From NCBI GenBank assembly GCA_965233585.1, contig CBDDTI010000746.1:128001-192000 (forward strand): a DNA stretch of 64,000 nt, in the 5' to 3' direction. The translations under genes were made by a program, and so were the position numbers. The notes beneath the pieces are model-generated. The model had not been told where the DNA came from and made no database searches. It saw nothing but the letters and a program-made list of their open reading frames with translations. Positions within the stretch are counted from its first letter, which is position 1; every line of letters starts with the position of its first letter. Source of the stretch: a bacterium. GTDB taxonomy: Bacteria; SAR324; NAC60-12. This document shows positions 2,365-37,746 of the stretch, piece after piece.

Positions 2365-2388
2365 TTCAAATTGTTAAGTACTAAAAAA

Positions 2389-3068: not shown

Positions 3069-3083
3069 TCTTTATTTTTAATA

Positions 3084-3257
3084 CTATATTAACATTAAAA
3101 AAATATTGATATTTAGAAGTAAAAAATTATCTTCAATATTATTGTTAGGATTAAACTTGATAAGATTACAGTGATTTTTCAATAAAGGTATTAAATCAGT
3201 TGCTACAGTACCTTTGTAACCACTTATTAAGACTTTTTTATTTTTGATGAAACTCAT
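3084..3257 (-). pseudogene. N-terminal remnant of NAD-dependent epimerase (duplicate of 6846-7673)
   Basis: MSFIKNKKVLISGYKGTVATDLIPLLKNHCNLIKFNPNNNIE aligns without gaps to MSFIEGKKVLWNGFRGSVGSDLSFLLKDHCNLINFDPAKNIE, then breaks off. Confidence 0.8.
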
Positions 3258-3274
3258 ATTTAGATTACAGCTAT

Positions 3275-4031: not shown

Positions 4032-4053
4032 TTATCAATATATCAAATAGATT

Positions 4054-4713: not shown

Positions 4714-4737
4714 GATTTTTTCTAAAAATTTGTGTTA

Positions 4738-5790: not shown

Positions 5791-6770
5791 AACGCTTCTT
5801 GGAATAAGTGAGTGTAAATTTCACTTGGGGTTGGAAAAGGAGAAGACTGAGCAAAAGTAAAGGCATCATGGATTTCTTCTTGAATGTTATTTTCCATTTC
5901 CATCAAATCCTCTTGGCTCATGATTTGTATTTCTAAAAGTTTGTTTTGAAAATAACTGACAGGATCATGTTGGATCCAATCTTCAAATTCTTCTTGAGTT
6001 CGGTATCCTATGTCATTGTCAAAATTCGTTCCGCAGTGTTCTCTATGCCTGTAAGTATGAAATTCTAAAAAATAAGGTTGTTTCTCCTTTTTAATAAATT
6101 CCACTGCTTTTTTGCTTTGTTTCATGACTTCTAAAACATCATTACCATTGGCTTCTTCGGAAGTAATTCCAATCGCCTGAACCATTTCATGAATTTTTCT
6201 GTTCTTAGGTTGTCTCACAGCTAAAGGAGAATACACAGAATATAAATTATTTTCACAAATGAAAAGTACAGGTAAGTTTTGAAGAGCAGCAAAGTTAGCA
6301 CTTTCATAAAAAACTCCTTCTTCAGTGGCCCCCTCACCAAAAAAAACAGTTGAAACTCTATCCTCTTGTTTGGTTTGAATGGATAATCCCAATCCAACCC
6401 CAACTGGTATCGTGCCAGCCACAATAGCTGTACTTCCCATAAATCCAACTTTCGTATCTATCAAGTGCATAGAACCTCCCTTGCCTTGACAACAGCCTGT
6501 CACTTTGCCATAAATTTCAGCAATCATTGCTTTTAAACTTCCTCCCTTTGCTAAATAGTGAGCATGTGCCCTATGTCCAGACACTGCAAAATCATAGTCA
6601 CTTAAACTAGCACATACTCCAACAGCAACAGCTTCTTGACCTATTGACAAATGGGTAGGACAACGCATTTCTTGATTAGGATATTCTTTTACTATTTCTT
6701 CCTCCACTGCTCGTATCCGTTTGAGATCAAACAATAGAGTTTTTAAAGATTCTTGAGATGCTTGAAACAT
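5787..6770 (-). CDS. ThDP-dependent dehydrogenase E1 alpha subunit
   Basis: HLSIGQEA, GKGGSMH, FFGEGAT...ICENN (ThDP motif). Confidence 0.92.
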   Translation of the reverse strand: MFQASQESLKTLLFDLKRIRAVEEEIVKEYPNQEMRCPTHLSIGQEAVAVGVCASLSDYDFAVSGHRAHAHYLAKGGSLKAMIAEIYGKVTGCCQGKGGSMHLIDTKVGFMGSTAIVAGTIPVGVGLGLSIQTKQEDRVSTVFFGEGATEEGVFYESANFAALQNLPVLFICENNLYSVYSPLAVRQPKNRKIHEMVQAIGITSEEANGNDVLEVMKQSKKAVEFIKKEKQPYFLEFHTYRHREHCGTNFDNDIGYRTQEEFEDWIQHDPVSYFQNKLLEIQIMSQEDLMEMENNIQEEIHDAFTFAQSSPFPTPSEIYTHLFQEAL

Positions 6771-6845
6771 AGTATCAATTAAAATTTTTATAGAATTACA
6801 ACTGAACGATGATATATCTTTTAAAAAGTTTTATTATGAATTGTA

Positions 6846-7673
6846 TTATTTCATCATAGTTGAATGCTTTGGAGAATTAGAAAAGAGTAAATCTGTCCAA
6901 TAATCTATAGATTTTTTAGCATCTAATGCTAGATCATAGTCTTTCATTAATTTATCTACACTAATACTAAAATGATTCAGATTTTCAGAAGATTGTATAA
7001 TTTGCGATTTAGATTGTAGTTTTTCTTTCAAATAGACGACTAAATCTAACAAAGTATATTCAACCGAACTAGCAAAGTTTAAAATGTCAAATTTTTTATT
7101 AAAATCATTGTTTAAAAGAAATTTAAAAATATCATATGGATTTACTAATAAATTAAATTTTTTCAAACTATTAGTTAAGATTACGTCTTGATTCGTAATA
7201 AGTTTATCCAATAATCTGAAAAATAAGTGAGGGTGGATATTTTTTTTAGAAGTAAGTATTGCCGGAAAACGCAGACATAAAACATTCATATCAACACTTT
7301 CTAACATCTTTTCACCCACTAGTTTTGTCAACCCGTATAAGTCAGGTGTGGATAAAGTATGTTTTTCATCAATATTTTCTTGGTTCGCACTACCATAAAC
7401 CGAATTACTTGAGAAAAACACAAAGTTTTTGATTTGATTTCTATCACAAAACCTAATAACGTCCTGTAAGAAGATAATGTTAGATTGTATTACCTTTTCA
7501 TAACTATGAACAGGACTTGCACCTGCTAAATGCAAAAAAATATCTGCTTCAATATTCTTGGCAGGGTCAAAATTGATAAGATTACAATGATCTTTTAACA
7601 AAAAACTTAGATCAGAACCTACAGATCCTCTAAATCCATTCCACAAAACTTTTTTACCTTCAATAAAACTCAT
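6846..7673 (-). CDS. NAD-dependent epimerase/dehydratase
   Basis: HLAG, FFSSNSVYG, YGLTK motifs. Confidence 0.85.
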   Translation of the reverse strand: MSFIEGKKVLWNGFRGSVGSDLSFLLKDHCNLINFDPAKNIEADIFLHLAGASPVHSYEKVIQSNIIFLQDVIRFCDRNQIKNFVFFSSNSVYGSANQENIDEKHTLSTPDLYGLTKLVGEKMLESVDMNVLCLRFPAILTSKKNIHPHLFFRLLDKLITNQDVILTNSLKKFNLLVNPYDIFKFLLNNDFNKKFDILNFASSVEYTLLDLVVYLKEKLQSKSQIIQSSENLNHFSISVDKLMKDYDLALDAKKSIDYWTDLLFSNSPKHSTMMK

Positions 7674-7709
7674 AGCATTTTTATGAATCTAACATATTTG
7701 ATAGTTTTT

Positions 7710-8828
7710 TCAGAACGTGTTCTCTGTGGAATGAAAGAATTGTCCAATGGACTGACAAACAAACTCTATTTGTCCGTCTTTTAAAAAAGGATAAATAGGA
7801 AGACTCACAATTTCTTTAATAATCTTTTCAGTGATTGGAAAATCACTTTGTTGATAACTTAATCTTTTAGCAATCGGTTGGAGATGCAAAGGAACAGGAT
7901 AATGAATTTTGGTTTCTATGCCCTGCTCCAAAAGGAACCTCATCAACTCATCTCTCTGATTTGCATGGACTTGAATGACAAAATTATGATAAACACTTCT
8001 CAAATTTTTATTAGGAGGAAGACACTTAACAACGTCGTGTAAATTCTCATAATAAAATTTTGCAATTTCCTGATAACGTTTATTCCATTTTGCCAGACGC
8101 TTCAGTTTTACCAAACCAAAAGCCGCTTGTAAATTATCTAATCTGGAATTGACGCCCCAAACAATCGCTTCATCTCTGTTTTTCAATCCATAATTGCGTA
8201 AAAGTCTCAGCTGACTTGCAATATTTTCATCATGGGTAGTAATGATGCCTCCATCTCCCATCAAGTTAAGATTTTTTAGTGGGTGTAAGCTAAAACAACC
8301 CGCATCAGACAATCCCCCAGTTTTTTTAGCATAGTATGTGGCGCCAATGGATTGAGCTGCATCTTCAATCACGTGGAGACAATGCTTTTTAGCAATAGAA
8401 TTGATTTCATTCATTTTAGCAGGTCTTCCATTCAAATGGACAGGAATGATTGCTCTAGTTTTTGATGTGATGGCTGGCTCAATGAGGTTGGGGTCAATAT
8501 TAAAATCTTCAGCAACATCAACTAAAACAGGCTTTGCTCCAGCACTGATGACAGACGTCATAGTAGCTAGAAAAGAGTGAGCAGGAATAATCACTTCATC
8601 ATCTCTCTCTACTCCTAAAACCTTCAAACAAAGCGTGATTGCATCACCACCATTTGCGACACCAACAGCAAACTTTGTTTCACAAAAATCAGCAACTGCT
8701 TGCTCAAAACGCTCCAATTCCTCTCCTAAAATATAAGAACCTTTAGAGCAAACTTGATCAAAAGTTTCTATCAATTCCTCTCTAATTTCTTGATATTCTA
8801 AAGACAAATCAATAAAAGGAACTCTCAA
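7710..8828 (-). CDS. DegT/DnrJ/EryC1/StrS aminotransferase
   Basis: VPFIDL, IEDAAQS, FSLHPLKNL, NSRLDNLQAA, IHYPVPLHLQP. Confidence 0.93.
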   Translation of the reverse strand: MRVPFIDLSLEYQEIREELIETFDQVCSKGSYILGEELERFEQAVADFCETKFAVGVANGGDAITLCLKVLGVERDDEVIIPAHSFLATMTSVISAGAKPVLVDVAEDFNIDPNLIEPAITSKTRAIIPVHLNGRPAKMNEINSIAKKHCLHVIEDAAQSIGATYYAKKTGGLSDAGCFSLHPLKNLNLMGDGGIITTHDENIASQLRLLRNYGLKNRDEAIVWGVNSRLDNLQAAFGLVKLKRLAKWNKRYQEIAKFYYENLHDVVKCLPPNKNLRSVYHNFVIQVHANQRDELMRFLLEQGIETKIHYPVPLHLQPIAKRLSYQQSDFPITEKIIKEIVSLPIYPFLKDGQIEFVCQSIGQFFHSTENTF

Positions 8829-8829
8829 T

Positions 8830-9975
8830 TTAACCTTTATAAAAAGTTTTAATCAATTCAATCACTTGGTCTTGCTGTGCTTGAGTGATAAATTCATGAA
8901 CAGGCAGAGAAAGGCAGTGATTTGCAGTGTATTCGCTGACAGGAAAGTCTCCTTTTTGATGATTCAAAAAAGAAGAGGCAGGTTGAAGGTGCATAGGGAC
9001 TGGATAATGCACTTTAGCATCAACTCCATTTTGGATTAAGTAGTCTTTTAATTCATCTCGCCTTTCACAAGTGAACATGTACAGATGATACACATGTTTT
9101 TTATGAACTTCTCGTTTAGGAATTTTGATCTGTTCTATATTTTCTAACTCCTGGTCAAAATAATGAGCATGTTGGATTCGTTTTGCTGTGATATTTTCAA
9201 TGTGATGATCCAATAAATGTTGTCCCACTACTGCTTGAATAGTGTCTAATCTTGAGTTGTAAGCAAATTCTTGACAAACATTTCTTGAGACCAGCCCGTG
9301 GTTGCGAATCAATCTTAATTGTTCAACGATTTTTTTGTCGTTAGAAACGATGAGTCCCCCATCTCCCCAAACATTCAAATTCTTTAACGGATGCATGCTA
9401 AAACAAGAGGTGGTGCCAAAATCACCTATTTTCTGGCTCTGATATTCTGATAAAATAGCGTGGCAAGCATCATAAACAATCGGGACGCAATGTTTTTTAG
9501 CAAGATTTTCTAGGCAGATACAATCACAGGGGTTTCCTGACCAATGCACAGGCACTATCGCCTTAGTCTTTGGAGTCATTGCACTCTCAAGCTGAGAAAC
9601 ATCTATGTTGAAATCATCTTTAATATCTACAAAAACAGGCTTTGCTCCAGCAGTCACAATCGCTCCTACAGTTGCATAAAAAGTAAAAGAAGTTGTGATG
9701 ACTTCATCACCTTCTTTGACACCAAGAGCCTTTAAGCTTAGGAAAAGTGCATCTGTCCCAGAGCCAACTCCAATGGCATATTTTGCGCCAACTGCTTCTG
9801 CAAAATTTTCTTCAAACTGATCTACAGCTTTTCCCAAAGTAAAATCGTTTTCAAGTACAACTTGCTCTATCTTTTTGAAGATTTCTTGATAATCGCTAAA
9901 TTGTTCTTTCAGATAGTTATGTTTGATAGTCAATTCGCTATCTTTTAGATATTGTTCTGGATAAAAGTTTTTCAT
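8830..9975 (-). CDS. DegT/DnrJ/EryC1/StrS aminotransferase
   Basis: GSGTDAL, YDACHA, FSMHPLKNL, NSRLDTIQA, VHYPVPMHLQP. Confidence 0.93.
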   Translation of the reverse strand: MKNFYPEQYLKDSELTIKHNYLKEQFSDYQEIFKKIEQVVLENDFTLGKAVDQFEENFAEAVGAKYAIGVGSGTDALFLSLKALGVKEGDEVITTSFTFYATVGAIVTAGAKPVFVDIKDDFNIDVSQLESAMTPKTKAIVPVHWSGNPCDCICLENLAKKHCVPIVYDACHAILSEYQSQKIGDFGTTSCFSMHPLKNLNVWGDGGLIVSNDKKIVEQLRLIRNHGLVSRNVCQEFAYNSRLDTIQAVVGQHLLDHHIENITAKRIQHAHYFDQELENIEQIKIPKREVHKKHVYHLYMFTCERRDELKDYLIQNGVDAKVHYPVPMHLQPASSFLNHQKGDFPVSEYTANHCLSLPVHEFITQAQQDQVIELIKTFYKG

Positions 9976-9996
9976 GCGATTCCTTCAATAATAAAT

Positions 9997-10128
9997 CTAA
10001 ACAGGTTTGGTATTTAAGTCTTCTTTAGAATCTATTTCTACCCAACCTCCTTCTATGTAAATTGGAGTAGCATCTAATAAATTATCTATGATCAATTGAA
10101 GAAAACTTGTCATATGCATCTCATTCAT
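9997..10128 (-). pseudogene. C-terminal remnant of a LicC-like/sugar nucleotidyltransferase
   Basis: Manual translation MNEMHMTSFLQLIIDNLLDATPIYIEGGWVEIDSKEDLNTKPV*; the MTxxLQ...GGWxEIDxxEDL pattern matches the C-terminus of phosphocholine/phosphonate cytidylyltransferase-like enzymes. Confidence 0.6.
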
Positions 10129-10171
10129 CGAGTAATGTCGTAATTTTTTTGTAAATCAGAGAAGTTAAACC

Positions 10172-11113
10172 TTAGCTAATCTGCAAATTTTGCATCACTT
10201 TTATATTGTAAAATTTATTTTCATCTTTTAAGACTCCCTTATGATACAAATTAGCAATCTCATCAATTGCATCATCTACACAAAAGGAAGGTTGAAAACC
10301 TGTATTCAGGAGCTTATCAGAATTAAGCCTGTAAGAACGATGGTCTTGAGTATCTATCATTTCTATTTTGGCATCCACCTTTTGAATGATCTTTTCAGCA
10401 ATATTCAATATGGAAATGTTCTCAAAACCTGCATTATAGATGCCTTGTAGTTCTTGACCTTGCTTGATACAGTGCAAATAAACTTCTATCATGTCCTTGA
10501 TGTGTATGTTAGGTCTGATATTCTTCTCTCCAAAAACTTTAATCACGCCATTTTTCAAAGCGTGCATAGACAGCATATTGACTGCTGTATCTAACCGCAT
10601 TCTAGGAGAATACCCACAAACTGTTGCAGGTCTAATAATTTGGACAAGTATGTCTTTAGTATAGCTCAATAAAACTCGTTCACTAACCATTTTGGTTTTA
10701 TTGTAATCACTGATAGGGACTAAATCTAGGTCTTCAGTGACTTGCTCTTCTTCTTTGATGCCATAAACACTGCCACTACTTGCATAAATGAATTGCTTAA
10801 CATCATTTTTGATCGCTTTTTCTACTAAAAACTTTGTTGCTAAAACATTGGTTTCCCAAGAAAGTTTGGGATTTAAATCACTACATGGGTCATTTGCGAT
10901 ATTTGCCAGATGAATCAAAACATCAACATTCTGCATATTGATTGCTTGAACATCTCTAATATCACCCTTAATGACTTCTAAGTTTTGGTGTTCTTGTAAA
11001 AACTCTCCAAACCAAAATGTGTCTATGACACGCAGCTGGTGTGATTCTTTAAGTAACCTTTCTACCAAAGGAACTCCAACATATCCACCGCCACCTAATA
11101 TTAAGATATTCAT
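10172..11113 (-). CDS. NAD-dependent epimerase/dehydratase
   Basis: GGGGYVG, ASSGSVYG, YNKTK, RPATVCGYSPRMRLD. Confidence 0.92.
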   Translation of the reverse strand: MNILILGGGGYVGVPLVERLLKESHQLRVIDTFWFGEFLQEHQNLEVIKGDIRDVQAINMQNVDVLIHLANIANDPCSDLNPKLSWETNVLATKFLVEKAIKNDVKQFIYASSGSVYGIKEEEQVTEDLDLVPISDYNKTKMVSERVLLSYTKDILVQIIRPATVCGYSPRMRLDTAVNMLSMHALKNGVIKVFGEKNIRPNIHIKDMIEVYLHCIKQGQELQGIYNAGFENISILNIAEKIIQKVDAKIEMIDTQDHRSYRLNSDKLLNTGFQPSFCVDDAIDEIANLYHKGVLKDENKFYNIKVMQNLQIS

Positions 11114-11115
11114 GT

Positions 11116-12105
11116 TTATTCTTTATGTATATAGTTTAGATTTTGTTTCAAAAGTGTTTCCAAATTATTTTTGACCCAACAGATACAATCATCTAACCCT
11201 TGTTCAAGACTCGTATTGAAGTCTGTACAAAATTCATTGGTAAATTGGGAAGAATCTAGCAAGTACGCTTTATCTTTACCTTTTCGTTCTTCTCCAAAAT
11301 TGACATACTTGTCAAAAGAAATATTTAGTAAATCTGCAATCTTCACCACTAAATCTTTAATACTAATTTGCTCTTGGGTAGAAAGATGATAAAGACTTCC
11401 AATCTTGGATTGTTTCATAATGAGGTAAGTTGCTTGAGCCACATCCTGAATATGAATAAAACTTCTAATTGATGTTCCTCCACCATGCAATGTCAAATTT
11501 TGATTGGTTAAAAAGTACAAGATTGTTTTTGGAATGATGCGATAAAGTTGTTGACAAGCACCATAAACATTAGCCGCTCTTGTCCACACCACGGGGAAGC
11601 CGTAGGTATTCAGCAGCACTTTTAGGTGCATGTCTATACTTGCTTTAGAAACAGCATAAGGTGTGCTTGGTTGATAATGCGTATTTTCTTGCACTAGACC
11701 TTCCGTATTGCCATAGATTTCAGGAGTAGAAATTTGCACATACTTTTGAATAGAAGTCTCATCCTTTAAATGTTCTAAAAGTTCAACATGAGACAAAAAA
11801 TTGGCATGATACCAATGGCTTGGATTCTCAAAACTTTCAGCAACCATACACAGAGCAATAAAATTGACAATGTAGTCAGGCTTAAAAGTTTTGATAAAAT
11901 CTACAATTCCTTGTGTTTGATGGTTTAAGTTGTATTGATAAAAAGTGAAGTTTTTGTAATTAGAGTGGTTTTTGTAGGGAAGAAAGACTTCGTTAATTTC
12001 ATCAGATCTGCTGATGCCCACCACCTCATCACCTTGACTCAAACAATGGTTGATGAAGTGAGAACCTGAAAACGAATTACTGCCTAAAACGAGAACTTTA
12101 CTCAT
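11116..12105 (-). CDS. NDP-glucose 4,6-dehydratase-like epimerase
   Basis: Likely start MSKVLVLGSNSFSG (12105); ISTPEIYG, PSTPYAVSK, RAANVYG, RSFIHIQD. Confidence 0.88.
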   Translation of the reverse strand: MSKVLVLGSNSFSGSHFINHCLSQGDEVVGISRSDEINEVFLPYKNHSNYKNFTFYQYNLNHQTQGIVDFIKTFKPDYIVNFIALCMVAESFENPSHWYHANFLSHVELLEHLKDETSIQKYVQISTPEIYGNTEGLVQENTHYQPSTPYAVSKASIDMHLKVLLNTYGFPVVWTRAANVYGACQQLYRIIPKTILYFLTNQNLTLHGGGTSIRSFIHIQDVAQATYLIMKQSKIGSLYHLSTQEQISIKDLVVKIADLLNISFDKYVNFGEERKGKDKAYLLDSSQFTNEFCTDFNTSLEQGLDDCICWVKNNLETLLKQNLNYIHKE

Positions 12106-12376
12106 TTGACCACGTCTAAAAGCTAGAACAAAGCCCAACATTGTCCTGTAATGTAACCCAAATGTCAAAATGATTGTTCGTTCAAAATTTTGGTAGTGCT
12201 ACTTCTTGCTTTTTGGAACAATCAATGGTTTAATAGTGCGAATTTTGGTGTCTAATCGGAGTCAAAGAAAATTTGCACGTACGTTGTGTTTTTGATTTTT
12301 CGGGAAATTTTTTGAGATTTTTTACGAAAGAAGATTTAAACTGCCCCTAACTTGTCATGTTGTGAATGTTGATTGA

Positions 12377-23911: not shown

Positions 23912-24478
23912 ATGGCTTACCAACTGAAACAAACCCCAGTACTGACCTTCATTTCGTCTAATGAAGGCAAAAGACAAGAGCTTCAACAGTCCCTTCCCTA
24001 TCCTGTCAGACTCCAGCAGATTGACCTTGAAGAAATTCAAACTGCTGATTTGGAAACTTTAGTTTTGCATAAACTGAAACAGGCAAAGCAGGTTGTGACA
24101 GATGGTATTTTGGTTGAAGACACCTCCTTAATTTTTACAGCATGGGGGAAGCTACCGGGTCCATTCATCAAATTTTTTTTGCAAGAAATTCATTTGGCAG
24201 AATTTCATAAAATGTTACAAGTGCAGGATCATTTTGAGGCAAAAGCGATTTCTATCATAGGTTTGTTTCATCAAGGGAAGACACTGATTTTTAGAGGAGA
24301 AATAGACGGGCAAATCGTTCTACCTCGTGGGGAAAATGGTTTTGGGTGGGATTCTATTTTTCAGCCGCAAGGAACTTTCAAGACATTCGCAGAAATGGAA
24401 GATGAGGAAAAGCAGGACTATTCCATGCGTCAAATTGCCCTTGACAAATTAACTTGCTATCTTAACCACCTGTCTTAA
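23912..24478 (+). CDS. rdgB: Non-canonical purine NTP pyrophosphatase (Ham1/ITPase)
   Basis: SSNEGK, VEDTSL, LPGPFIK, GFGWDSIF, SMR. Confidence 0.85.
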   Translation: MAYQLKQTPVLTFISSNEGKRQELQQSLPYPVRLQQIDLEEIQTADLETLVLHKLKQAKQVVTDGILVEDTSLIFTAWGKLPGPFIKFFLQEIHLAEFHKMLQVQDHFEAKAISIIGLFHQGKTLIFRGEIDGQIVLPRGENGFGWDSIFQPQGTFKTFAEMEDEEKQDYSMRQIALDKLTCYLNHLS

Positions 24479-25408
24479 CTCCTTAGGCAATGCAAACACG
24501 ACATTTTCATCAATCATTTTAATTTCTTGAGTAGTAGCATTGCTTGAAAGACTTTCCAATTTTTTCAGAATCTCTTTGACAAGTTCTTCTGGTGCTGATG
24601 CCCCCGCAGTGACTCCAATCATTTTTGAGTCTTTGATGTCTTCGGGGTCAATTTCAGAAGCTGATTCAATACGTTTCGCACGAACTCCTGTTTGTTCTGC
24701 CACTTCAACAAGTCTCAAAGTATTTGAGCTGTTAGATGCCCCAACAACAAAAACAAAGTCTGTCTGTTTTGCCAGCATTTTGACAGCATTTTGACGATTT
24801 TGAGTGGCGTAACAGACATCAGATTTTGCAGGTCCCTGAATGTTGGGAAAGCGTGTTTTGAGAGCATGGACGATTTCTGCAGTATCATCAATGGAAAGCG
24901 TGGTTTGCGTTATATACGCAAGTTTAGTATCAGAAGAAAACTGCAATGCTTCTACATCTTTTTTGTTTTCTACAATGACAATGTTCTCAGGCGATTGACC
25001 AACTGTGCCTTGCACTTCAACATGATTGCGATGCCCTATCAGAACGATACGATACCCTTCTCGTGCGTATCGCTTGGCTTCAAGATGAACTTTAGTGACA
25101 AGCGGGCATGTGGCATCAATACTCTTCAAGCCAAGTCTTGTCGCTTCTTCTCTGACTTGAGGTGAAATGCCATGAGCTGAAAAGATGACATAAGCACCTT
25201 TGGGGATTTCTTCTAAATGCTCAACAAAAATAGCGCCTTGATGTTCTAGTTTTTGGACAACATGAGGATTATGAACAATTTGATGCCTCACATAAATCGG
25301 AGGTCCGTAGAACTCCAATGCTTTTTCTACGATTGTCACTGCACGATGCACTCCTGCACAAAACCCTCTGGGGCTTGCTAACATCAGGTTGAAATTGAAA
25401 TCTTCCAT
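24449..25408 (-). CDS. ispH: 4-hydroxy-3-methylbut-2-enyl diphosphate reductase
   Basis: PRGFCAGV, IVHN, DATCPLV, CYATQNRQ, SSN, TAGASAP. Confidence 0.97.
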   Translation of the reverse strand: MEDFNFNLMLASPRGFCAGVHRAVTIVEKALEFYGPPIYVRHQIVHNPHVVQKLEHQGAIFVEHLEEIPKGAYVIFSAHGISPQVREEATRLGLKSIDATCPLVTKVHLEAKRYAREGYRIVLIGHRNHVEVQGTVGQSPENIVIVENKKDVEALQFSSDTKLAYITQTTLSIDDTAEIVHALKTRFPNIQGPAKSDVCYATQNRQNAVKMLAKQTDFVFVVGASNSSNTLRLVEVAEQTGVRAKRIESASEIDPEDIKDSKMIGVTAGASAPEELVKEILKKLESLSSNATTQEIKMIDENVVFALPKELRQVVKIAS

Positions 25409-26486: not shown

Positions 26487-28007
26487 ATGCGTTCATTTAT
26501 TACCCGCGTGAGCGTCTGCCTCATCGCATTTTTTGTCGTTGGGTTCATTGTTGGAAGCATCATGAGTCATCATTTCTCACAAGGAGGAGCGACTTCTTGG
26601 AGTTGGCAAACGGTTTCAGTGGGCTTGTTGATTATGTCACTCGTGAGCTGGGTGGTCGTTTACTTCTTTTGTGAATGGCTACTTGCTCCTTTGTTTTATT
26701 GGTTTCGCCGTGTTTCCACATTACCGATTGACAAAGTTGTTGGCTCTCCTTCCGATGTGAAAAAAACAACAGAATGGTATTTTTTAAGAGACCATTTCAC
26801 TTACATGAAACGAACCATTGACTCACAACATCGCGAACTGCAACAAAAAACTCTTGAAAGCCAAGAGGCACATCAGCTGAAAATAGACTTCATCAAAAAT
26901 ATGTCTCACCACCTAAGAACTCCCCTCAACAGCATGATTGGTGCTTCTCGTCTTTTGTATGAAGGAGAATCTACCCAAGAACTTCAAAAAATCGCTTTTT
27001 GCAATGCTCAAGACATTTCGGGGTTAGTTGAAAGTTTAATGACTTTAGCAGAGATAGATTCTGCCATGTTAAGATACTCTCCCCAGTGGACAAATTTCAA
27101 AGAACTCATTGACCAAGCACTCACAGAAGTCGTGCAAACAACTGGTCTCTCACATCAAGAATTACCTCTTCACTTATCTCCAAATCTTCCTCAAAGAACC
27201 TTTTATGACCCCGATTTATTGGTGCGTATGGTGAAGGTTTTAACTAGGACGTGCTTGCGTTCTTTTCCCAAAGGAGTCCAAATGATTCAGGCATGGTCTG
27301 ATGAAAATTCTTTTGCTTTTACTTTGAAAACAGAAGAGTTTGAACAAGACAACTTAGACCGACTGTTAGACCGATTCCCCAAAATCAGCTCTCAATATGT
27401 ACAACAATATCCGCTGTTGTCTGTCAACTTGTCTTTAGTGAAAGAGTTGGCAGAATTTTGCGGGGGGAATTTGCTGGCTTCCTCTATTGATCACAAAGGA
27501 TTGTGTTTAGAGTTGAGACTCCCTTTGAATCATACGACTGCAGATTCACAACAAGAAAAACAGTGGGATTTGTTTGAAGAATCTGAAGAAGACCTGAAGC
27601 AAGTAGAAATAGAACCCAAACAACTTGAGCCACACCACAAAATTCTGATTGCAGAAGACAACCGAGAAAACCAATTTGTCTTTGCACAATATCTAACACA
27701 CAGACCAGACCAAAGCTACGAGGTCATTTTTGCATCAGACGGAGTGCAGGCATTGCAAAAAGTGAGGTCAGAAAAGCCAGACCTTGTGATGCTAGACATG
27801 ATGATGCCAAACATGGGAGGCATTGAAACTGCTAAAAAAATCAGAGCAGATGCCAAATTCAAAGACATTCCTTTGATTGCTGTAACATCTATGGCATCAG
27901 GGGAAGATAGAGAGCAAATAGAGGGTTACGTTGATGCTTATTTAAGCAAACCTGTCATGGTAGAGGATTTATACAAAACTTTGGACTGTTATCTAAAAGC
28001 GAATTAA
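26487..28007 (+). CDS. Hybrid sensor histidine kinase/receiver with degenerate ATPase domain
   Basis: Two TM helices, H-box MSHHLRTPLN, receiver ILIAEDN..LDMMMP..AVTS..SKP; N and G boxes not recognisable. Confidence 0.85.
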   Translation: MRSFITRVSVCLIAFFVVGFIVGSIMSHHFSQGGATSWSWQTVSVGLLIMSLVSWVVVYFFCEWLLAPLFYWFRRVSTLPIDKVVGSPSDVKKTTEWYFLRDHFTYMKRTIDSQHRELQQKTLESQEAHQLKIDFIKNMSHHLRTPLNSMIGASRLLYEGESTQELQKIAFCNAQDISGLVESLMTLAEIDSAMLRYSPQWTNFKELIDQALTEVVQTTGLSHQELPLHLSPNLPQRTFYDPDLLVRMVKVLTRTCLRSFPKGVQMIQAWSDENSFAFTLKTEEFEQDNLDRLLDRFPKISSQYVQQYPLLSVNLSLVKELAEFCGGNLLASSIDHKGLCLELRLPLNHTTADSQQEKQWDLFEESEEDLKQVEIEPKQLEPHHKILIAEDNRENQFVFAQYLTHRPDQSYEVIFASDGVQALQKVRSEKPDLVMLDMMMPNMGGIETAKKIRADAKFKDIPLIAVTSMASGEDREQIEGYVDAYLSKPVMVEDLYKTLDCYLKAN

Positions 28008-28124
28008 CTTTGATGAGCGATAGGTTTTACATGAGTCACTACGATTGTTCACCAACTAGATTTAGCAAAGTTTTGAAAAAAAGCTCACCATACACAACGT
28101 GGAATTGCATTCGCTATTGATTTT

Positions 28125-29066
28125 ATGTCAGTTTCAAAAGACATTGCAAATTTGGAGAAGTACCAAGAGGTCATCTATCAAAAAATGATAGATGTCATTG
28201 CAAATCAAAAAAAGATCAAACATCTAATTGATAAGCATAAATTAGAAATAGAACAATGGAATAAAAAAATCATCTTGGCACAGCAATTAGGAGATGAATC
28301 ACTTGTAAATAGCGCATTTATCCAAAAGAATAAACTGCAAAATCATATTTTAGAATTAAATCAACAATTAGAACTTGACCAACAAGAACAAAAAAAATTA
28401 CGTGGTAAATATGACCAATTAAAATCTCAAATCAATTTATTGAAAATCAAAAAACGTCATCATGCCTCTCAACAAAAAATAGAACAAGAACAATCTCCAA
28501 AGCAAACAAATTTTTCAAAAAGTGGGCATCAGAATAATAGAAAGTCAGACAAGATTTTTAATGCAAAAAAGTGGAGACAAAAAGCCAGTCAAGTTAAATT
28601 TAGATATTTAGCTAGTATCGTATTGATTATTTTGACTTTATATGCAATTTTTTCTAATAAAAATGAAGGAGGAAGAATAGTAGGAATTGTAAATAGAGTG
28701 ATAGACGGAGACACCATCATTGTAAAAAATATGAGAGTTCGCCTATTAAATGTTGATACAGAAGAAAGTGTCCACCCTACTAGAAGAAATACAGAGTTTG
28801 GAAGGATCACATCAGCTCATGTCCGTCAAGAGCTAACAGGAAAAGAAGTACAGCTAGAATGTCATGGACAAGATGTTTACGGCAGGAGTTTATGTTATGT
28901 TTTTATAAAAAGCTGGTTGGGTCAAAAACTTTACAATGTTGAGTTAGTTCAAGACGGTTGGAGCAAATACTATACAAAATATGGTATATCCCAAAACTAT
29001 CACAGTGAATTTACTAGGGCAGAAAAACAGGCTAAAAACAACGAGATTGGCGTGTGGGAAAAATAA
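28125..29066 (+). CDS. PspA/IM30-like helical hairpin - TM - thermonuclease (SNase) fusion
   Basis: N-terminal WNKKIILAQQLGDESLVNSAFIQKNKL (PspA-like); TM YLASIVLIILTLYAIFS; SNase motifs VIDGDT, RVRLLNVDTEE, DVYGRSLCYV, NVELVQDG, GVWE. Confidence 0.8.
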   Translation: MSVSKDIANLEKYQEVIYQKMIDVIANQKKIKHLIDKHKLEIEQWNKKIILAQQLGDESLVNSAFIQKNKLQNHILELNQQLELDQQEQKKLRGKYDQLKSQINLLKIKKRHHASQQKIEQEQSPKQTNFSKSGHQNNRKSDKIFNAKKWRQKASQVKFRYLASIVLIILTLYAIFSNKNEGGRIVGIVNRVIDGDTIIVKNMRVRLLNVDTEESVHPTRRNTEFGRITSAHVRQELTGKEVQLECHGQDVYGRSLCYVFIKSWLGQKLYNVELVQDGWSKYYTKYGISQNYHSEFTRAEKQAKNNEIGVWEK

Positions 29067-30217: not shown

Positions 30218-30502
30218 CTAAAGCAAAATTTCCCATTCAGAAGGTAAAAGGTAATGTTTGCTGCTGTTGCATTCTTTACAAGCAGGGACAACATTGGATT
30301 TGACGCTTTTGCCACCCCTTGAAATGGGGACAACATGATCCATCGTCAATGTTTTTGCTGCAAATTGTTGCTTGCAATAATGGCAGATGTTGTATGCCCT
30401 GCGGTTCTTCCACCATTGAGAGTTTCTTAAATCTCTTGCTTTACGTTTTTCTCTGGCAATGTGTTCTGGGTCTGCTACCTCAAAAAAAACAGAGTTTGTC
30501 AT
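30218..30502 (-). CDS. Small HNH endonuclease
   Basis: REKRKARDLRNSQWWK, CHYC, TMDHVVPISRGG, NVVPACKECN; ATG overlaps leuD stop. Confidence 0.9.
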   Translation of the reverse strand: MTNSVFFEVADPEHIAREKRKARDLRNSQWWKNRRAYNICHYCKQQFAAKTLTMDHVVPISRGGKSVKSNVVPACKECNSSKHYLLPSEWEILL

Positions 30503-31125
30503 CAGTGATTCAAGTCGTTCCAAGGTGTTTGGTGGATGCTGTTTTTTTCAAATTGTTCAATTTGTTCCAAAAATTGCAAAGTCCAACCAATCTCATCTAA
30601 TCCTTTCAACAATTTTTCTTTGGCAAATGAATCTACGTCAAAGCTAAAAAGGTTACCTTCAGGCGTCAATACGGTTTGCTCTCTCAAATCTACTTCTGCT
30701 TGAGCATGCTCTTTTGATTCAATTTCTGTGAATAGTTGTTGAATGTCAGCACTGCTTAATTTGATTGGTAAAATGCCATTTTTAAAGCAATTATTGTAAA
30801 AAATGTCAGCAAAACTTGGTGCTAAGAGGCAACGGAATCCGTAATCATGCAAAGCCCAAGGTGCATGTTCGCGGCTTGAACCACAGCCAAAGTTGTCTCG
30901 TGTGACAAGGATTTTTGCCCCTTGGTAACGTGGCTCATTTAGCTCAAACTCGGGGTTTGGAACTTCCCCTTCATCGTCAAGAAACCGCCAATCATGGAAA
31001 AGATGCTTGCCAAAACCTGTGCGTTCAATCTTTTTTAAGAATTGCTTGGGAATGATGGCATCAGTGTCCACATCAACACGGTTCAGCAATGCCGCAGTGG
31101 CTTTGAGGTGAATCAATGGAGTCAT
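30502..31125 (-). CDS. leuD: 3-isopropylmalate dehydratase small subunit
   Basis: VDTDAIIPKQFL, NFGCGSSREHAPWAL, SFADIFYNNCFKNG. Confidence 0.97.
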   Translation of the reverse strand: MTPLIHLKATAALLNRVDVDTDAIIPKQFLKKIERTGFGKHLFHDWRFLDDEGEVPNPEFELNEPRYQGAKILVTRDNFGCGSSREHAPWALHDYGFRCLLAPSFADIFYNNCFKNGILPIKLSSADIQQLFTEIESKEHAQAEVDLREQTVLTPEGNLFSFDVDSFAKEKLLKGLDEIGWTLQFLEQIEQFEKNSIHQTPWNDLNH

Positions 31126-31237: not shown

Positions 31238-31720
31238 GGCATTGTTAATTTAATATAGTTAATTGATGATTGAGCTTTAAGAACAAGAGTTTGAGAGAAA
31301 GTATCATCATGTCTTGAGATTTAGAATAGCATTTAGTTTTTCTTTTGAATCTAGCAAGGTAGTGTCTGATTCTATTGTTATATCCTTCTATTGTATAGGT
31401 TTGTTTTTTGTCTTGAATATGTAGATGAAGAGGTGGGAACTCACAGTAGCTTTTCCAATGGTCAGTATAAAAAGTCTCAACATGCCTAGTCTTCAGAGCA
31501 TCCCAGATCTTCAGACCTGTTTGAGTAAACCTGTCTCCACAGATACAAGTGATAAATCGCTTTGCAAATCTATCAACAGCAACCCATATCCAGCTGTAGT
31601 TTTTTTTGACCCCACAATAAGTATGAAGCTCATCCAATTCTACCACCTTGAAACCTGACCCTGATGCTTCTGGCACTAAATCTCCAGCAGCTTGAGCATA
31701 CTGCTTAATCCAGGTTGGAA
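31238..31720 (-). mobile_element. IS1-family element, 5'-truncated remnant
   Basis: InsB motifs ELDELHTY, WIWVAVDR, YTDHW, IEGYNNRIRHYLARFKRKTKCYSKS; one terminal IR ggcattgttaat at 31238; no InsA zinc finger or left end seen. Confidence 0.88.
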
Positions 31721-31820
31721 TTGAAATGAGAGAAGAAATTGATGAATATTTTGCAAAATTCAAATGATTTATTTAGATAAGGATTGTAAGACTGTGAACA
31801 TTTAAAGCAAAAAATTCAAT

Positions 31821-32536: not shown

Positions 32537-33475
32537 TTATTCTGATTTGCTGAACACTTGATCAAAAATTGGTTGCCCTTCAGCATTCCAAATAATCACT
32601 CTGACATGAAGGATAGGATTCCTCCGATTGACAGGTTTTTTGAAGTCAAAACTTCTGAACCTTCGTATTGTAAATTGCTGAGATTTTGCAGGGTCAAAAG
32701 GGATAGGATTTTGGGAGACTTTTTGATTCTGACGGAACAGCACCGTGCGGACACTTCCTTTTTGCAAACGGTCAGAAAGGTTTCTTAACTTGAAGCCAAA
32801 GATTTCTTGATTACCCTGATTTTTCAGATAAAATCCATCTGCAATGACTTCAGATTTGACAGGTGGGGGAGTCGGTGGTGGGTTTTCAGCAGGCTTTTCC
32901 TGTTCTCTGATGATTTTAGCAAGCTCTAATTTGAGATAATCAATCTCGTCTTTTTGCTTCAAAAGTGTTTCTTTTTGCTCTGAAATTTGAAGGTTTTGGT
33001 CGTCTAGCTTTTGTTGTTGTGTCTCTAATTTTTGAGTTTGTTCTGAAAGCTGTTGCTCGTAAGTTTCAACTTGTTCTTGAAGGGTTTGATTAGTCTCTTG
33101 AACTTCTGCAAAATTTTGTTTTTGCCTAGCAAGAAGCACTTCCAAACGAATGACATTCTCTTTTTGCGATTCAGAATGACTGGATTCTTTTTGTTGAGGG
33201 CTAGTATTGCTGAGAACAGCAACCCGCTCTTTCTTCATAGATTGTTGCTGTCCAATTTTTAAATTTTTGATTTCATTTTGATAATGGACATACATGATGA
33301 TTGGCATAATGATCGCTGCTATCAAAAAAACAGCCAAAATGTAAGCGATGCTCTTGATAAAACCTTCTCTGATTTCCCAGTTGTTTCTTAACCCAACAAT
33401 GTGAATCTTCTCAGTCAAATGGCTTTTATCAACGGAATCCGTAGTCTCAAAGAACATTTTCAATGTAGTTTGCAT
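32537..33475 (-). CDS. Hypothetical membrane-anchored coiled-coil protein
   Basis: One TM helix, long Gln/Glu-rich coiled coil, Pro-rich linker, small beta-rich C-terminal domain. Confidence 0.7.
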   Translation of the reverse strand: MQTTLKMFFETTDSVDKSHLTEKIHIVGLRNNWEIREGFIKSIAYILAVFLIAAIIMPIIMYVHYQNEIKNLKIGQQQSMKKERVAVLSNTSPQQKESSHSESQKENVIRLEVLLARQKQNFAEVQETNQTLQEQVETYEQQLSEQTQKLETQQQKLDDQNLQISEQKETLLKQKDEIDYLKLELAKIIREQEKPAENPPPTPPPVKSEVIADGFYLKNQGNQEIFGFKLRNLSDRLQKGSVRTVLFRQNQKVSQNPIPFDPAKSQQFTIRRFRSFDFKKPVNRRNPILHVRVIIWNAEGQPIFDQVFSKSE

Positions 33476-33493: not shown

Positions 33494-34630
33494 CTACTCT
33501 TCAGCATAATACATGCCATGATGAATCTCATAACGTTGATTTTCTAACAAATCAACAAATTCTTGTAATTCTAATTCTGTCAATGCGTTTGATAGCGTGG
33601 GAACGTCCAGCTGTGTTTGTTCACAAAGTTCATCAAAAGAAGCAGAGTTTTGATGAAGGATTTGTAAGACAAGATGTTGGGATTCTGTCAGGTTTGCAGA
33701 AGGGATTTTTTGTTGGGTAGGAAAGTCAAAACTTTTTTGTTCAATTTTGGGAGTATGAGAAGGAAAGTGTTCCTCAAGAATGTCTTGAGCATTTTGAATC
33801 AGCTTGGCTTGGTTCTTAGAAATGAGACGATGACTGCCGTAGCTATGAATGGAAAAGATTCTGTCAGGAAGGGCAAAGACTTCTCTGTTTTGTTCAAGTG
33901 CAAAACCTGCTGTAATCAAAGACCCGCTTTTTTGACCTGCTTCTATCACGACAACGGCATGAGACAGACCACTGACGATGCGATTGCGAATAGCAAAGTG
34001 CTTGCCCAATGGCTTGGACGTCATGGGAAATTCTGAAAGCAGACAGCCTTGATGAGTGATTTGCTCTGCAAGGCTTGTGTTCTCTTTGGGATAAATATGA
34101 TTCACTCCCCCCGCTAAAACTGCAATCGTGCAAAGCCCTGACTCTAGTGCGGCTTGATGCGCAGCAGTGTCTATGCCCCTTGCCAGACCGCTGACCACCA
34201 CAGCATCAGGAACAAGTTTTGCGAAGTCAAAAATGATTTGCTTGGTCGCTTCCCTACCATAACTTGTGCAATTTCGTGAACCAACAAAACTGATGAAAAA
34301 GCTAGACTTTGGAAAATGTCCGTTGTAGTACAAAACAACGGGTGGTGCTGGAATCTCTTTGAGTAATTGAGGATACTCAGGTTGGTCTAAACAAATCAGT
34401 TGCGTTTGTGAATGTTGCAAAAGCTGACATTCTTTTTGAAATCTTGGGGCAGACTTCGCATGAACCACTTCAGTTGCCAGTTTTAAAGAAAGCCCTGACC
34501 TCCTTGCGAGGTCTTCTGGAGACATTGTAAAAACTTGCTCTAAACTTTCAAAACGAGATTGAAGGTGTTGAATGGTCTTGACCCCAATAGAAGGAATCAA
34601 ATGCAATGCTAGCCAATCCCATTGATTCAT
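33494..34630 (-). CDS. dprA: DNA-processing protein DprA
   Basis: VGSRNCTSYG, VVSGLARGIDTAAH, FAIRNRIVSGLS, SGSLITA. Confidence 0.96.
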   Translation of the reverse strand: MNQWDWLALHLIPSIGVKTIQHLQSRFESLEQVFTMSPEDLARRSGLSLKLATEVVHAKSAPRFQKECQLLQHSQTQLICLDQPEYPQLLKEIPAPPVVLYYNGHFPKSSFFISFVGSRNCTSYGREATKQIIFDFAKLVPDAVVVSGLARGIDTAAHQAALESGLCTIAVLAGGVNHIYPKENTSLAEQITHQGCLLSEFPMTSKPLGKHFAIRNRIVSGLSHAVVVIEAGQKSGSLITAGFALEQNREVFALPDRIFSIHSYGSHRLISKNQAKLIQNAQDILEEHFPSHTPKIEQKSFDFPTQQKIPSANLTESQHLVLQILHQNSASFDELCEQTQLDVPTLSNALTELELQEFVDLLENQRYEIHHGMYYAEE

Positions 34631-34633
34631 GCG

Positions 34634-35605
34634 TCAACTTGTTTTAAGAGTTTGTCCGTGAGTCAACTGAAACAAAGCCTCCCAGTTTTCAGATTCTGCA
34701 GAGACAGCTTGCAAAGTTTGAGTCAACTCTTGCAACGATTCAATTTCTATGGTGAGCGTGACGGCTTCCTTTTCAAAAGAAGGGTCATAGTCAAGTTTTG
34801 CATTACTGGGAAGTTGTAGCTTCCTGAGATGGACTTGAAATTGTTGCTGTGTTTTTGTTTTTTCAGGGTAGCGATGCTTTTCTAAAAAGAGTTTGAAATG
34901 TTTAAATTTAAGCGAGCTATCAAGCTGTGTGTTTGCCATAATCCGTTGGACTTCTGTTTGTTCTAAAATTTCATAAGGTGAGCATTGCATCAGTTTTGCC
35001 GTCTCACTCAAAAGTTTGATGGTGCTTTTAAATTTATTGCCCCCAATCATAAAATTTGCAAAAACTTTTCCAACCGCACGAATGTCTTCAGCTTTTAACG
35101 GAAGTAACGCCAATAAATCTGAGAGCGAGTACATTTTGAAACATTCTTGTTGTTCTTGCATTTGCTTTTGAAGTCGTTTGATTTGCTGAAGCCTTTGCAA
35201 AGATGCAGGAAACCCAAAACAAGGCAGGATTGCCACGATAGACTCTTGACTTGCACCATACTGGGCTAATAAATCCAAGATTCTGAATACCTCCAGAAAA
35301 GAACACTCTACCAACGAATGACTCTTGAGCTTCCATAACATCAACTCTTTCATGGAAAGGCTTGGCTTGAAGATTAAGCATGGTAGAGGTGAAACATCTT
35401 TTTGGAAGAGCCAACGAAACCTTTGAAATCCATCAACAATCATATAGTTTTTGTCATCTTGAGGATACACACAAAGTGGGTTGAGTAATCCTTCTTTTTC
35501 TAAAGATTCATGCAATGTCTCTTGCAATGCCCAATCAAATAAAAGATTGCGATGCTGAATTTGATGAATCTCTAATTTTTTAAAGGACTCAAAGTAATAC
35601 TTCAT
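34634..35605 (-). CDS. ParB/Srx N-terminal domain protein
   Basis: LHESLEKEGLLNPLCV..YMIVDGFQRF. Confidence 0.7.
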   Translation of the reverse strand: MKYYFESFKKLEIHQIQHRNLLFDWALQETLHESLEKEGLLNPLCVYPQDDKNYMIVDGFQRFRWLFQKDVSPLPCLIFKPSLSMKELMLWKLKSHSLVECSFLEVFRILDLLAQYGASQESIVAILPCFGFPASLQRLQQIKRLQKQMQEQQECFKMYSLSDLLALLPLKAEDIRAVGKVFANFMIGGNKFKSTIKLLSETAKLMQCSPYEILEQTEVQRIMANTQLDSSLKFKHFKLFLEKHRYPEKTKTQQQFQVHLRKLQLPSNAKLDYDPSFEKEAVTLTIEIESLQELTQTLQAVSAESENWEALFQLTHGQTLKTS

Positions 35606-36588: not shown

Positions 36589-37746
36589 TCATTGCTGATT
36601 TGGGTTGACAGGAGACAATTCTTGAGCGATGGCTAAATGCCCATAATACTTGGCAAGTTCATAGGGAGTTTGAGATTGTTGATTGGCTAGGGTCGGGTCT
36701 GCACCTGCTTTGAGCAACAATTTAACAATGTCATAAGCACCAGTGCGGGAGGCAAAGGCAAGGGCTGTCATTCCTGTTGAAGATTGATTGTTCACAGAAA
36801 CTCCTTGCTTTAATAATTCTTGTGCAATTTGAAAGCGTTGGTATTCTGCTGCTAGCATTAAAGCTGTGTAACGTTCTTGGTCTTGTTGATTCAGGTTTGC
36901 TCCTGCTTTGATTGCAAGCAATGCAATGTCATCGTGCGATTGAGCAATAGAAAGCATGAGGGCAGTTGTTCCATCATTTCTTTGTAGGTTGATGTCAGCA
37001 CCTGCTTTGAGCAACCACTGAAAGATGTCTTTTTTTCCTGAAAAAGCGGCAACCATCAAAAGACTCCAGCCTTCAGCATTTTGCAAATTGAGACTCCAGC
37101 CTTGTTGATAAAGTGCTTGTAAAACAAACTGATTCCCAGAATCAACGGCTTGTAGCATCTGTTGCCAGATTTGTTGTTTTTGTTGTTTTTGAGTTTTGTT
37201 GCGTTCTTGTCCCACTTCAAGAGCAATCAGTTCTTGCACGACATCTGTTCGGCTTTGTGATTTAGCAAGGGCAAGAGCCGTCTGGTCATCATCGTTTTCA
37301 AGGGTTAAATCTGCGCCTGAGGTGGCTAACATGCGCACCAAATCTAAATGCCCTGCATAAGAGGCAATCATTAAAGCAGTCCAATCTTCATGGTCTTGTA
37401 AATCCAAAGAAGCACCTGAATCTATCAAGACCCTAGCGATTGCAGTATCCCCTTGCATTGCCGCAACCATCAGAGCCGTCCAGCTTTCTTTGCTGATGGC
37501 ATTGACCTTGGCTTTCCTCTGAATCAACAGCCGAACGATTTCTAAGTGTTGATGAAAAACGGAGACAATCAATAATGACCTGCCGTCTCGGTCTTTGGAA
37601 TCAACAGAGATGCCTTGATCCAAAAAATTTTTGACCAACTCAATGTCTCCATTTGCTACTGCACTAAAAATCTGGGTAGTGGCGAAAACCTGCCATGTGA
37701 AGAAATTTAATGAGATGAAGATGAGGAAAACACGTAGAAACATCAT
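36589..37746 (-). CDS. Secreted ankyrin-repeat protein
   Basis: Signal peptide; many TALMxAA...LL..GAD.N repeats in two blocks. Confidence 0.92.
   Translation of the reverse strand: MMFLRVFLIFISLNFFTWQVFATTQIFSAVANGDIELVKNFLDQGISVDSKDRDGRSLLIVSVFHQHLEIVRLLIQRKAKVNAISKESWTALMVAAMQGDTAIARVLIDSGASLDLQDHEDWTALMIASYAGHLDLVRMLATSGADLTLENDDDQTALALAKSQSRTDVVQELIALEVGQERNKTQKQQKQQIWQQMLQAVDSGNQFVLQALYQQGWSLNLQNAEGWSLLMVAAFSGKKDIFQWLLKAGADINLQRNDGTTALMLSIAQSHDDIALLAIKAGANLNQQDQERYTALMLAAEYQRFQIAQELLKQGVSVNNQSSTGMTALAFASRTGAYDIVKLLLKAGADPTLANQQSQTPYELAKYYGHLAIAQELSPVNPNQQ

Follow-up and report, generated by a model that had tools for sequence, protein, structure and literature searches.

We describe here a gene from a bacterium of the SAR324 lineage (assembly GCA_965233585.1) whose product joins a helical hairpin of the PspA/IM30 type to a thermonuclease (SNase) domain. 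The gene lies in a 64,000-nucleotide stretch of contig CBDDTI010000746.1 (positions 128,001 to 192,000 of the forward strand) that we refer to as the window and within which all coordinates below are numbered. The open reading frame (ORF) is present exactly where an initial annotation, made from the sequence alone, had placed it. Its product, P0001, is composed of a PspA/IM30 alpha1-alpha3 hairpin (residues 3-122), a basic linker, a transmembrane helix (159-177) and an SNase domain (184-313). The identities and order of the domains and the catalytic residues can be read directly from P0001, and the architecture is kept in a second, diverged protein, P0002. The features of the gene, with the evidence in brackets, are:

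28125..29066, + strand: whole gene, encoding protein P0001 (313 codons plus stop)
28131..28490, + strand: PspA/IM30 (ESCRT-III-type) helical hairpin, residues 3-122, predicted cytoplasmic (Pfam, PDB, phmmer, AlphaFold2 (AF2), Foldseek, shuffles)
28257..28328, + strand: hairpin-tip region, residues 45-68, with the turn at 55-57 in the AF2 model (alignment of the fusions with canonical PspA)
28491..28598, + strand: basic low-complexity linker (residues 123-141, predicted with low confidence) and basic juxtamembrane helix (142-158) (AF2, charge, alignment)
28599..28655, + strand: single transmembrane helix, residues 159-177, predicted N-in/C-out (Kyte-Doolittle hydropathy, flank charges)
28674..29063, + strand: SNase/thermonuclease domain, residues 184-313, predicted extracytoplasmic (Pfam, NCBIfam, alignment, AF2, Foldseek)

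Sixteen codons 5' of the start there is an in-frame TGA (28074-28076), the intervening sequence contains no ATG, GTG or TTG, and the N-terminus of P0001 thus cannot be extended to include a further helix equivalent to alpha0 of PspA. P0002 has the same start point and the same length (313 residues).

The N-terminal PspA/IM30-type hairpin

Residues 7-133 of P0001 match positions 32-158 of the 220-position Pfam profile PF04012 (PspA_IM30). The two segments are of equal length and the alignment is hence free of gaps, as the initial annotation had judged by eye. The match scores 31.9 bits for the whole protein (E=1.3e-7) and 34.5 bits for residues 1-125 alone, relative to a curated cutoff of 33.9, and the precomputed Pfam annotation of the protein collection assigns PF04012 to both P0001 and P0002. 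The second-ranked Pfam family for the N-terminus of P0001 reaches E=0.068. The NCBIfam model TIGR02977 (pspA) also matches P0001 (E=4e-6), at a score far under its equivalog cutoff.

Comparison with individual proteins gives the same assignment. When residues 1-135 were compared with PDB chains using phmmer (E<=10), all 13 distinct sequences recovered were PspA, Vipp1 or IM30. These matches share one register, in which query residues 17-23 face residues 43-49, apart from a different numbering in two tagged chains and in a Vipp1 chain truncated at its N-terminus. Escherichia coli PspA (4whe) aligns without gaps between query residues 23-107 and residues 49-133, but this match is weak when taken alone (E=1.5). 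A phmmer search of 1.84 billion representatives of all protein lengths, with the N-terminus only as query, returned four proteins at E<=1e-3, namely P0002, P0013, P0014 and P0015, of which the last three all pass PF04012 (E 9e-29 to 2e-13).

As a control for chance similarity we built a small PspA profile from P0013, P0014 and P0015. The N-termini of P0001 and P0002 score 63.2 and 60.1 bits against this profile, whilst reversed N-termini, in which composition and heptad periodicity are kept, score -5.2 and -3.1 bits, and none of 2000 shuffled N-termini reaches the real score (maximum 12.0 bits). The three source proteins of the profile were themselves picked as matches to this query, with P0002 standing outside that selection. 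Given the uniform PDB matches and the absence of comparable shuffles, the N-terminus is a genuine PspA/IM30-type hairpin that stands clear of coiled-coil noise.

The AF2 model of this region, computed from a two-sequence alignment, contains helices at residues 3-54 and 58-122 with a predicted local distance difference test score (pLDDT) above 90. In a Foldseek comparison with the PDB the first 16 matches listed are all Vipp1 or PspA (E 2e-4 to 1.3e-2), and unrelated helical hairpins start only at about E=0.1. Superpositions of the hairpin alone on Vipp1/PspA give root-mean-square deviations (rmsd) of 1.6-2.8 Å over 112-121 columns, and the Foldseek match to 4whe has a TMt of 0.74 and an rmsd of 1.8 Å.

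The hairpin corresponds to alpha1 and alpha2/3 of PspA. The limits of the profile match (32-158 of 220) bear out the earlier observation that the amphipathic N-terminal helix and the C-terminal helices of PspA are absent, that is, alpha0, alpha4 and alpha5. Relative to P0001, the canonical proteins P0013 and P0015 have about 26 additional N-terminal residues, which form the amphipathic alpha0. Beyond profile position 158, P0001 continues with about 20 basic, low-complexity residues modelled at low confidence and then with the transmembrane helix. Six positions (W45, A52, L60, A64, K68 and L92) are invariant in P0001, P0002 and three canonical PspA proteins, and all but L92 cluster around the hairpin tip.

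These features can be set against what is known of the bacterial ESCRT-III superfamily, to which PspA, IM30 (Vipp1) and LiaH (PF04012) belong. The superfamily is defined by a hairpin made of helices H1 and H2/H3, with H0 responsible for membrane binding. Neighbouring hairpins lie side by side in all ESCRT-III filaments, and the PspA/Vipp1 protofilament is built through a contact between H5 and the hairpin of subunit j+3 (PMC7619361). For IM30, the alpha1-3 hairpin in isolation has been reported to be the minimal element driving stress- and pH-induced condensates (bioRxiv 10.64898/2026.02.28.708693). P0001 resembles the canonical proteins in the register and fold of the alpha1-alpha2/3 hairpin and shares the tip residues W45, A52, L60, A64 and K68 with them. 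It differs in that the canonical members have alpha0 and alpha4-alpha5, and in being integral, through a transmembrane helix C-terminal to the hairpin and followed by a predicted extracytoplasmic enzyme, where PspA/IM30 is peripheral. Since it has no alpha4-alpha5, P0001 alone cannot form the canonical contact between H5 and the hairpin. Judged from the alignment, it would keep the surface that accepts H5 but have neither the helix that is donated nor the one that binds the membrane.

The nuclease domain and its predicted topology

The C-terminal domain matches PF00565 (SNase) over profile positions 1-106 of 107 (E=1e-18, 68.2 bits relative to a cutoff of 21) and the NCBIfam model NucI (E=6e-24, under the equivalog cutoff). 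Staphylococcus aureus nuclease chains (E=6.6e-12; about 28-31% identity to staphylococcal nuclease) are identical to P0001 at D194-G-D196-T197, R206, D211, T212, E214 and Y252-G-R254. The DGDT, R..L..VDT.E and YGR motifs of the initial annotation, which had called the domain intact, thus stand opposite identical S. aureus residues. In S. aureus numbering we take the Ca2+ ligands to be D21, D40 and T41 and the catalytic residues to be R35, E43 and R87, equivalent to D196, D211 and T212 and to R206, E214 and R254 of P0001. The D, T, E and R positions are invariant in an alignment of 12 SNase sequences. An AF2 model computed from these 12 sequences has a pLDDT of 90.3, an earlier model from a two-sequence alignment having been poor in this region (pLDDT 25-66). 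The OB-fold barrel and three helices are present in the model, and Foldseek aligns it to solved nuclease with a TM-score of 0.78-0.82 (E=5e-11). A PHROGs search returned only nuclease families for the C-terminus and no match for the N-terminus. These data support a thermonuclease that is intact at the levels of sequence and modelled fold, with predicted nuclease activity.

The hairpin and nuclease are connected by the basic linker and single membrane segment that the initial annotation had proposed. Residues 123-157 carry a net charge of +8 in P0001 (+5 in P0002), and positions K148, K149, W150, Q152, K153 and S155 (KKW.QK.S) are conserved in P0002. Residues 159-177 are the sole stretch of P0001 with a 19-residue mean Kyte-Doolittle value above 1.6 (mean 1.96), and P0002 has a hydrophobic stretch at the matching position. 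AF2 models a continuous helix from 142 to 179. The 15 residues preceding the membrane segment of P0001 contain five K/R and no D/E, and the 15 that follow contain three K/R and one D/E; the corresponding flanks of P0002 are +4/-2 on the N-terminal side and +2/-2 on the C-terminal side. Under the positive-inside rule the positive flank stays cytoplasmic, and the charge bias moderately favours an N-in/C-out orientation, less so in P0002.

Relatives of the SNase domain bear on where it is located. P0003, P0004 and P0005 have a Cys pair spaced equivalently to Cys246/Cys257, which would fit a disulfide formed in an oxidising compartment. P0003 and P0004, metagenomic proteins that are the nearest relatives of the SNase domain, are 52-54% identical to it and have the same Cys pair and catalytic motifs. 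They differ from P0001 in having a signal-peptide-like start and a Cys-rich segment, with no PspA hairpin and no internal transmembrane helix. Each is 318 residues long with a pair of SNase-like repeats, of which the first is partial and has no Pfam call. An established precedent for a membrane-anchored SNase domain is S. aureus Nuc2, a type II signal-anchored, Ca2+-dependent surface DNase that cleaves single- and double-stranded DNA (PMC3994088). Nuc2 resembles P0001 in that the SNase domain, outward-facing in Nuc2 and predicted to be so in P0001, comes after a membrane anchor, but the Nuc2 anchor is at the N-terminus, whereas that of P0001 is internal (159-177) and follows a 158-residue PspA-type domain.

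From the flank charges, the Cys pair of the signal-peptide-bearing relatives, the Ca2+ dependence of the family and the Nuc2 precedent we infer an outward-facing nuclease. This makes the periplasmic location given in the initial annotation plausible, as a prediction and not as an observation. With the reverse orientation, or without membrane insertion, the SNase domain would stay in the cytoplasm as a toxic effector checked by low Ca2+; the gene might also simply be unexpressed. Such explanations could draw on the moderate charge bias, notably in P0002, and on the fact that no ribosome-binding or promoter signal stands out. However, an N-out arrangement would require export of a highly charged 158-residue domain with no signal peptide, the closest SNase relatives have signal-peptide-like N-termini together with the same Cys pair, and a dead gene would hardly keep an intact 313-residue frame in two diverged genomes. 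We regard a cytoplasmic or silent nuclease as very unlikely. We consider well supported a membrane protein that spans the bilayer once and joins a PspA-type hairpin to an SNase-type nuclease; the hairpin is predicted to be cytoplasmic, and the nuclease to face outwards and to be active with Ca2+.

Relatives of the fusion and its genomic surroundings

In a collection of 5.8 billion clusters, 12 of 872 candidate proteins match P0001 at E<=0.001. Both domains are found only in the query and P0002, and the other 10 proteins are SNase proteins with different N-termini. P0002 is 57% identical to P0001 overall (47% in the N-terminus and about 75% in the nuclease) and has the same domain order, transmembrane position and Cys pair. 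A homolog that keeps the fusion therefore exists, and its preservation at 57% identity indicates that both halves have been retained through substantial divergence. A frameshift or assembly artefact fusing two genes is ruled out by the same unbroken architecture in P0002.

Further searches did not enlarge the family. A search for longer forms considered 1879 candidates, none of which matches at E<=0.001, and 111 pattern matches obtained by searching species-representative genomes with P0001 include none that encodes a relative. A search restricted to residues 1-135 recovered only the query among 92 candidates, and is insensitive, having missed P0002 too. The ESM Atlas gave no usable match. The initial annotation knew of no description of a PspA hairpin fused to an SNase domain, and we found none in the literature searched. 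A survey of PSP systems reports that over 98% of about 2,500 PspA homologs consist of a single domain, and it names only tandem repeats, NlpC/P60 and PspAA as PspA fusions (PMC11237479). The word 'nuclease' is absent from the main text and one supplement of that study, whose web application may list further architectures. P0001 has a new domain architecture made of known parts.

The pattern of conservation bears on whether the hairpin has a role of its own. The protein could be an ordinary anchored nuclease used for scavenging or for degrading extracellular DNA, with its PspA-derived N-terminus reduced to a passive stalk or stabiliser in the cytoplasm that contributes to neither assembly nor localisation. 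Typical SNase enzymes are secreted or sit at the cell surface, and Nuc2 works on a plain anchor (PMC3994088). With alpha0, alpha4 and alpha5 the protein has lost the functional contacts known for PspA, and identity to P0002 is lower in the N-terminus (47%) than in the nuclease (about 75%). A stalk is harder to reconcile with a confidently folded hairpin of 120 residues whose length and register are kept at 57% overall identity, which argues for selection, with the retention of family-invariant residues at the tip, and with the conservation of the basic KKW.QK.S juxtamembrane positions. We consider a purely passive N-terminus somewhat unlikely.

The other features of the window referred to below are:

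557-12168, - strand: sugar-modification cluster (three DegT-type aminotransferases, epimerases/dehydratases, short-chain dehydrogenases, a methyltransferase and an E1 dehydrogenase alpha/beta pair)
24449-25408, - strand: ispH
26487..28007, + strand: hybrid histidine kinase/receiver (HisKA, Response_reg), the direct upstream neighbour, given as genomic context
30218-30523, - strand: HNH endonuclease ORF of 101 residues, overlapping the 3' end of leuD by 22 nt
30502-31125, - strand: leuD, without an adjacent leuC
31245-31763, - strand: IS1-family transposase fragment, where leuC would be expected
33494-34630, - strand: dprA (TIGR00732, 236 bits relative to a cutoff of 191; PADLOC ShosA, E=5.5e-64)
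36589-37746, - strand: ankyrin-repeat protein, eukaryote-like
55644-59351, + strand: protein of 1235 residues with fibronectin type III and Kelch repeats, eukaryote-like
60353-60757, + strand: second IS1-family transposase ORF

The window is ordinary chromosome with housekeeping neighbours. It contains phoH, minCD, ccmF, dsbE, ccmH, an iron-siderophore-type ABC transporter, ispH, hflC and the kinase, and the P0001 gene is followed by bcp, the small HNH gene, leuD, the IS1 fragment, ccmA, dprA, the ankyrin protein and topA. The direct neighbours are ispH, hflC, the kinase, bcp and leuD. Searching 185,579 species representatives with the IspH of the window gave 13 loci, the best only 55% identical; the best matches come from Nitrospira, a Piscirickettsiaceae metagenome-assembled genome (MAG) and PVC-group MAGs. 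The source lineage is without a close sequenced representative in this set. Rfam and tRNA scans of the window returned nothing.

The gene had been described as standing alone and as visibly AT-rich. It is separated from its same-strand neighbours by gaps of 117 bp (to the upstream kinase) and 129 bp, and its G+C content (GC) is below that of its direct neighbours; this much of the description stands. No promoter or terminator signal rises above chance, and the GC of 0.313 (gene mean 0.396, sd 0.043) ranks only fourth lowest of 55 ORFs, with the GC at third codon positions (GC3; 0.252) ranking eighth lowest. The hairpin has a second-position GC (GC2) of 0.163, and part of the deficit reflects an amino-acid composition rich in K, Q, N and I. 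Horizontal acquisition as an explanation of the low GC was set aside on account of these ranks and the contribution of composition. Within the sugar-modification cluster GC falls to 0.258 (GC3 0.124 at 1639-2364), under that of the P0001 gene, and the cluster looks like an O-antigen-type, possibly acquired block. Both IS1-family ORFs are shorter than a full transposase (NF033558 positions 71-199; PF03400). The eukaryote-like repeat proteins and insertion sequence (IS) elements hint at a host-associated lifestyle.

Two neighbours offer weak, single-genome hints of a connection with envelope stress. The upstream kinase has two or three hydrophobic membrane segments within residues 1-71 and scarcely any external loop, which gives it the look of an intramembrane-sensing kinase. 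Kinases of this type are linked to cell-envelope stress systems, including that of the PspA-like LiaH. The HATPase_c match of the kinase is weak (E=0.0035, 18.2 bits relative to a cutoff of 26.4). The second hint is hflC, an SPFH-family gene two genes from that of P0001; associations between SPFH proteins and PspA have been reported (PMC10936438; bioRxiv 10.64898/2026.10.24.761521).

Our scan of the window for genes related to PspA function covered 59 ORFs, including 57 of the 62 of at least 120 residues, ORFs under 120 residues elsewhere lying outside it. Among the ORFs scanned there are no Psp or Lia partners (PspB/C/F, LiaI/F and alike). P0001 thus fails on three defining PspA features, namely alpha0, alpha4-5 and Psp partners, and we file it as a PspA-hairpin-containing protein and not as a PspA.

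The initial annotation suggested that the hairpin may dock on Psp assemblies or sense membrane stress, and that the periplasm-facing nuclease is a candidate defence against DNA entering by phage injection, conjugation or transformation; in the strong form of this idea, damage to the inner membrane would be sensed and the incoming DNA destroyed. Several features are compatible with this idea. A PspA-type module and a nuclease would sit on opposite faces of one membrane, and in PspA/Vipp1 filaments H5 is received at the hairpin tip, which is conserved here. The gene has a GC under that of its direct neighbours, and it lies close to the kinase and hflC described above. The SNase part also matches the PADLOC model PDLC01096 'SNc+LTD' (E=1.6e-21). 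However, this match is limited to profile positions 49-178 of 279 and to the nuclease, and P0001 differs from the PADLOC system in having neither a lamin-tail domain nor a defence-gene context. PADLOC applied to 20 neighbours (18 + 2) gave generic domain matches only (ABC ATPases, DprA to ShosA, ankyrin, HNH); there is no defence island around the gene, the immediate neighbours being those listed above. With only two family members, co-occurrence statistics are impossible. Docking or stress sensing finds no support in the window, where no canonical Psp gene is seen among the ORFs scanned, and we judge a defence role improbable.

A role in competence would have the outward-facing SNase domain process incoming double-stranded DNA for uptake, with the hairpin coupling it to the uptake machinery. 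A bona fide dprA lies about 4.4 kb downstream on the opposite strand, and membrane nucleases at the uptake site occur in naturally transformable bacteria. However, dprA is widespread and is not adjacent to the P0001 gene, no com genes (comEC, comEA, pilins) are seen among the ORFs scanned, and to our knowledge the known uptake nucleases have other folds. A competence nuclease is accordingly very unlikely. The two ORFs flanking dprA (32537-33475 and 34634-35605) each encode more than 300 residues and fall in no Pfam or NCBIfam family.

Proposed role of the hairpin

The reading of P0001 that we favour is a signal-anchored extracytoplasmic nuclease that is clustered or localised by a cytoplasmic ESCRT-III-type hairpin, to which we would give a probability of roughly 45%. 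On this proposal the protein would cross the inner membrane once, with the N-terminus in the cytoplasm and the C-terminus outside, and the transmembrane helix would take over membrane attachment. The outer SNase domain would cut DNA or RNA in a Ca2+-dependent manner in the periplasm or at the cell surface. The hairpin would be more than an anchor, acting as a module for assembly and localisation: tethered hairpins may associate side by side in the plane of the membrane, and may also accept H5 of a canonical PspA, should the genome encode one. Either association would cluster the nuclease or place it at particular membrane sites. The simplest biological use would be the breakdown of extracellular or periplasmic nucleic acid. 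The proposal that the hairpin associates with itself or with other proteins draws on the side-by-side packing of hairpins in ESCRT-III filaments, on the condensates formed by IM30 alpha1-3, and on the position of the invariant residues at the tip.

A number of observations weigh against this proposal. Some concern the hairpin itself. The PF04012 score is marginal, with the whole-protein scores of both P0001 (31.9 bits) and P0002 (27.3 bits) below the 33.9-bit cutoff, and in P0002 the families V_ATPase_I (1.1e-4) and DUF4349 (2.9e-4) come within two orders of magnitude of PF04012. Canonical ESCRT-III polymerisation by P0001 alone is excluded on the predicted architecture, and no canonical pspA that might supply the missing helix is seen in the window scan. 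Binding by the hairpin is argued by analogy with PspA/Vipp1 and IM30. Others concern the protein and gene more generally. The topology argument from flank charges is of moderate strength. Inspection by eye revealed no Shine-Dalgarno-like sequence before the start, and promoter-like sites (4, with 6.2 expected) and terminators (0) do not exceed chance. Finally, with only two members in the collections searched, the fusion could be a peculiarity of its lineage that matters little.

The clustering proposal has a more elaborate form, in which membrane damage or local acidification would cause the hairpins to condense or to join PspA polymers at the lesion, concentrating the periplasmic nuclease where foreign or leaking DNA crosses the envelope. 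We hold this to be distinctly improbable. If true, it would amount to a breach-triggered nucleic-acid defence and to the first membrane-spanning, enzyme-bearing bacterial relative of ESCRT-III.

The weight that P0001 can bear is limited by the two known family members and by an uninformative genomic context. Its interest lies in the fact that PspA/IM30/Vipp1 proteins are nearly always single-domain and peripheral, and that the behaviour of the hairpin alone and the recruitment of cargo are active questions for bacterial ESCRT-III. In P0001 nature has detached the hairpin core from alpha0 and alpha4-alpha5, tethered it by a transmembrane helix and coupled it to an easily assayed enzyme predicted to lie across the membrane, and the protein would be a ready-made in vivo probe of hairpin-only association. 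If membrane stress does localise or activate the nuclease, the protein would link envelope-stress machinery to nucleic-acid degradation. From an evolutionary standpoint, P0001 shows that the ESCRT-III hairpin can be reused as a module.

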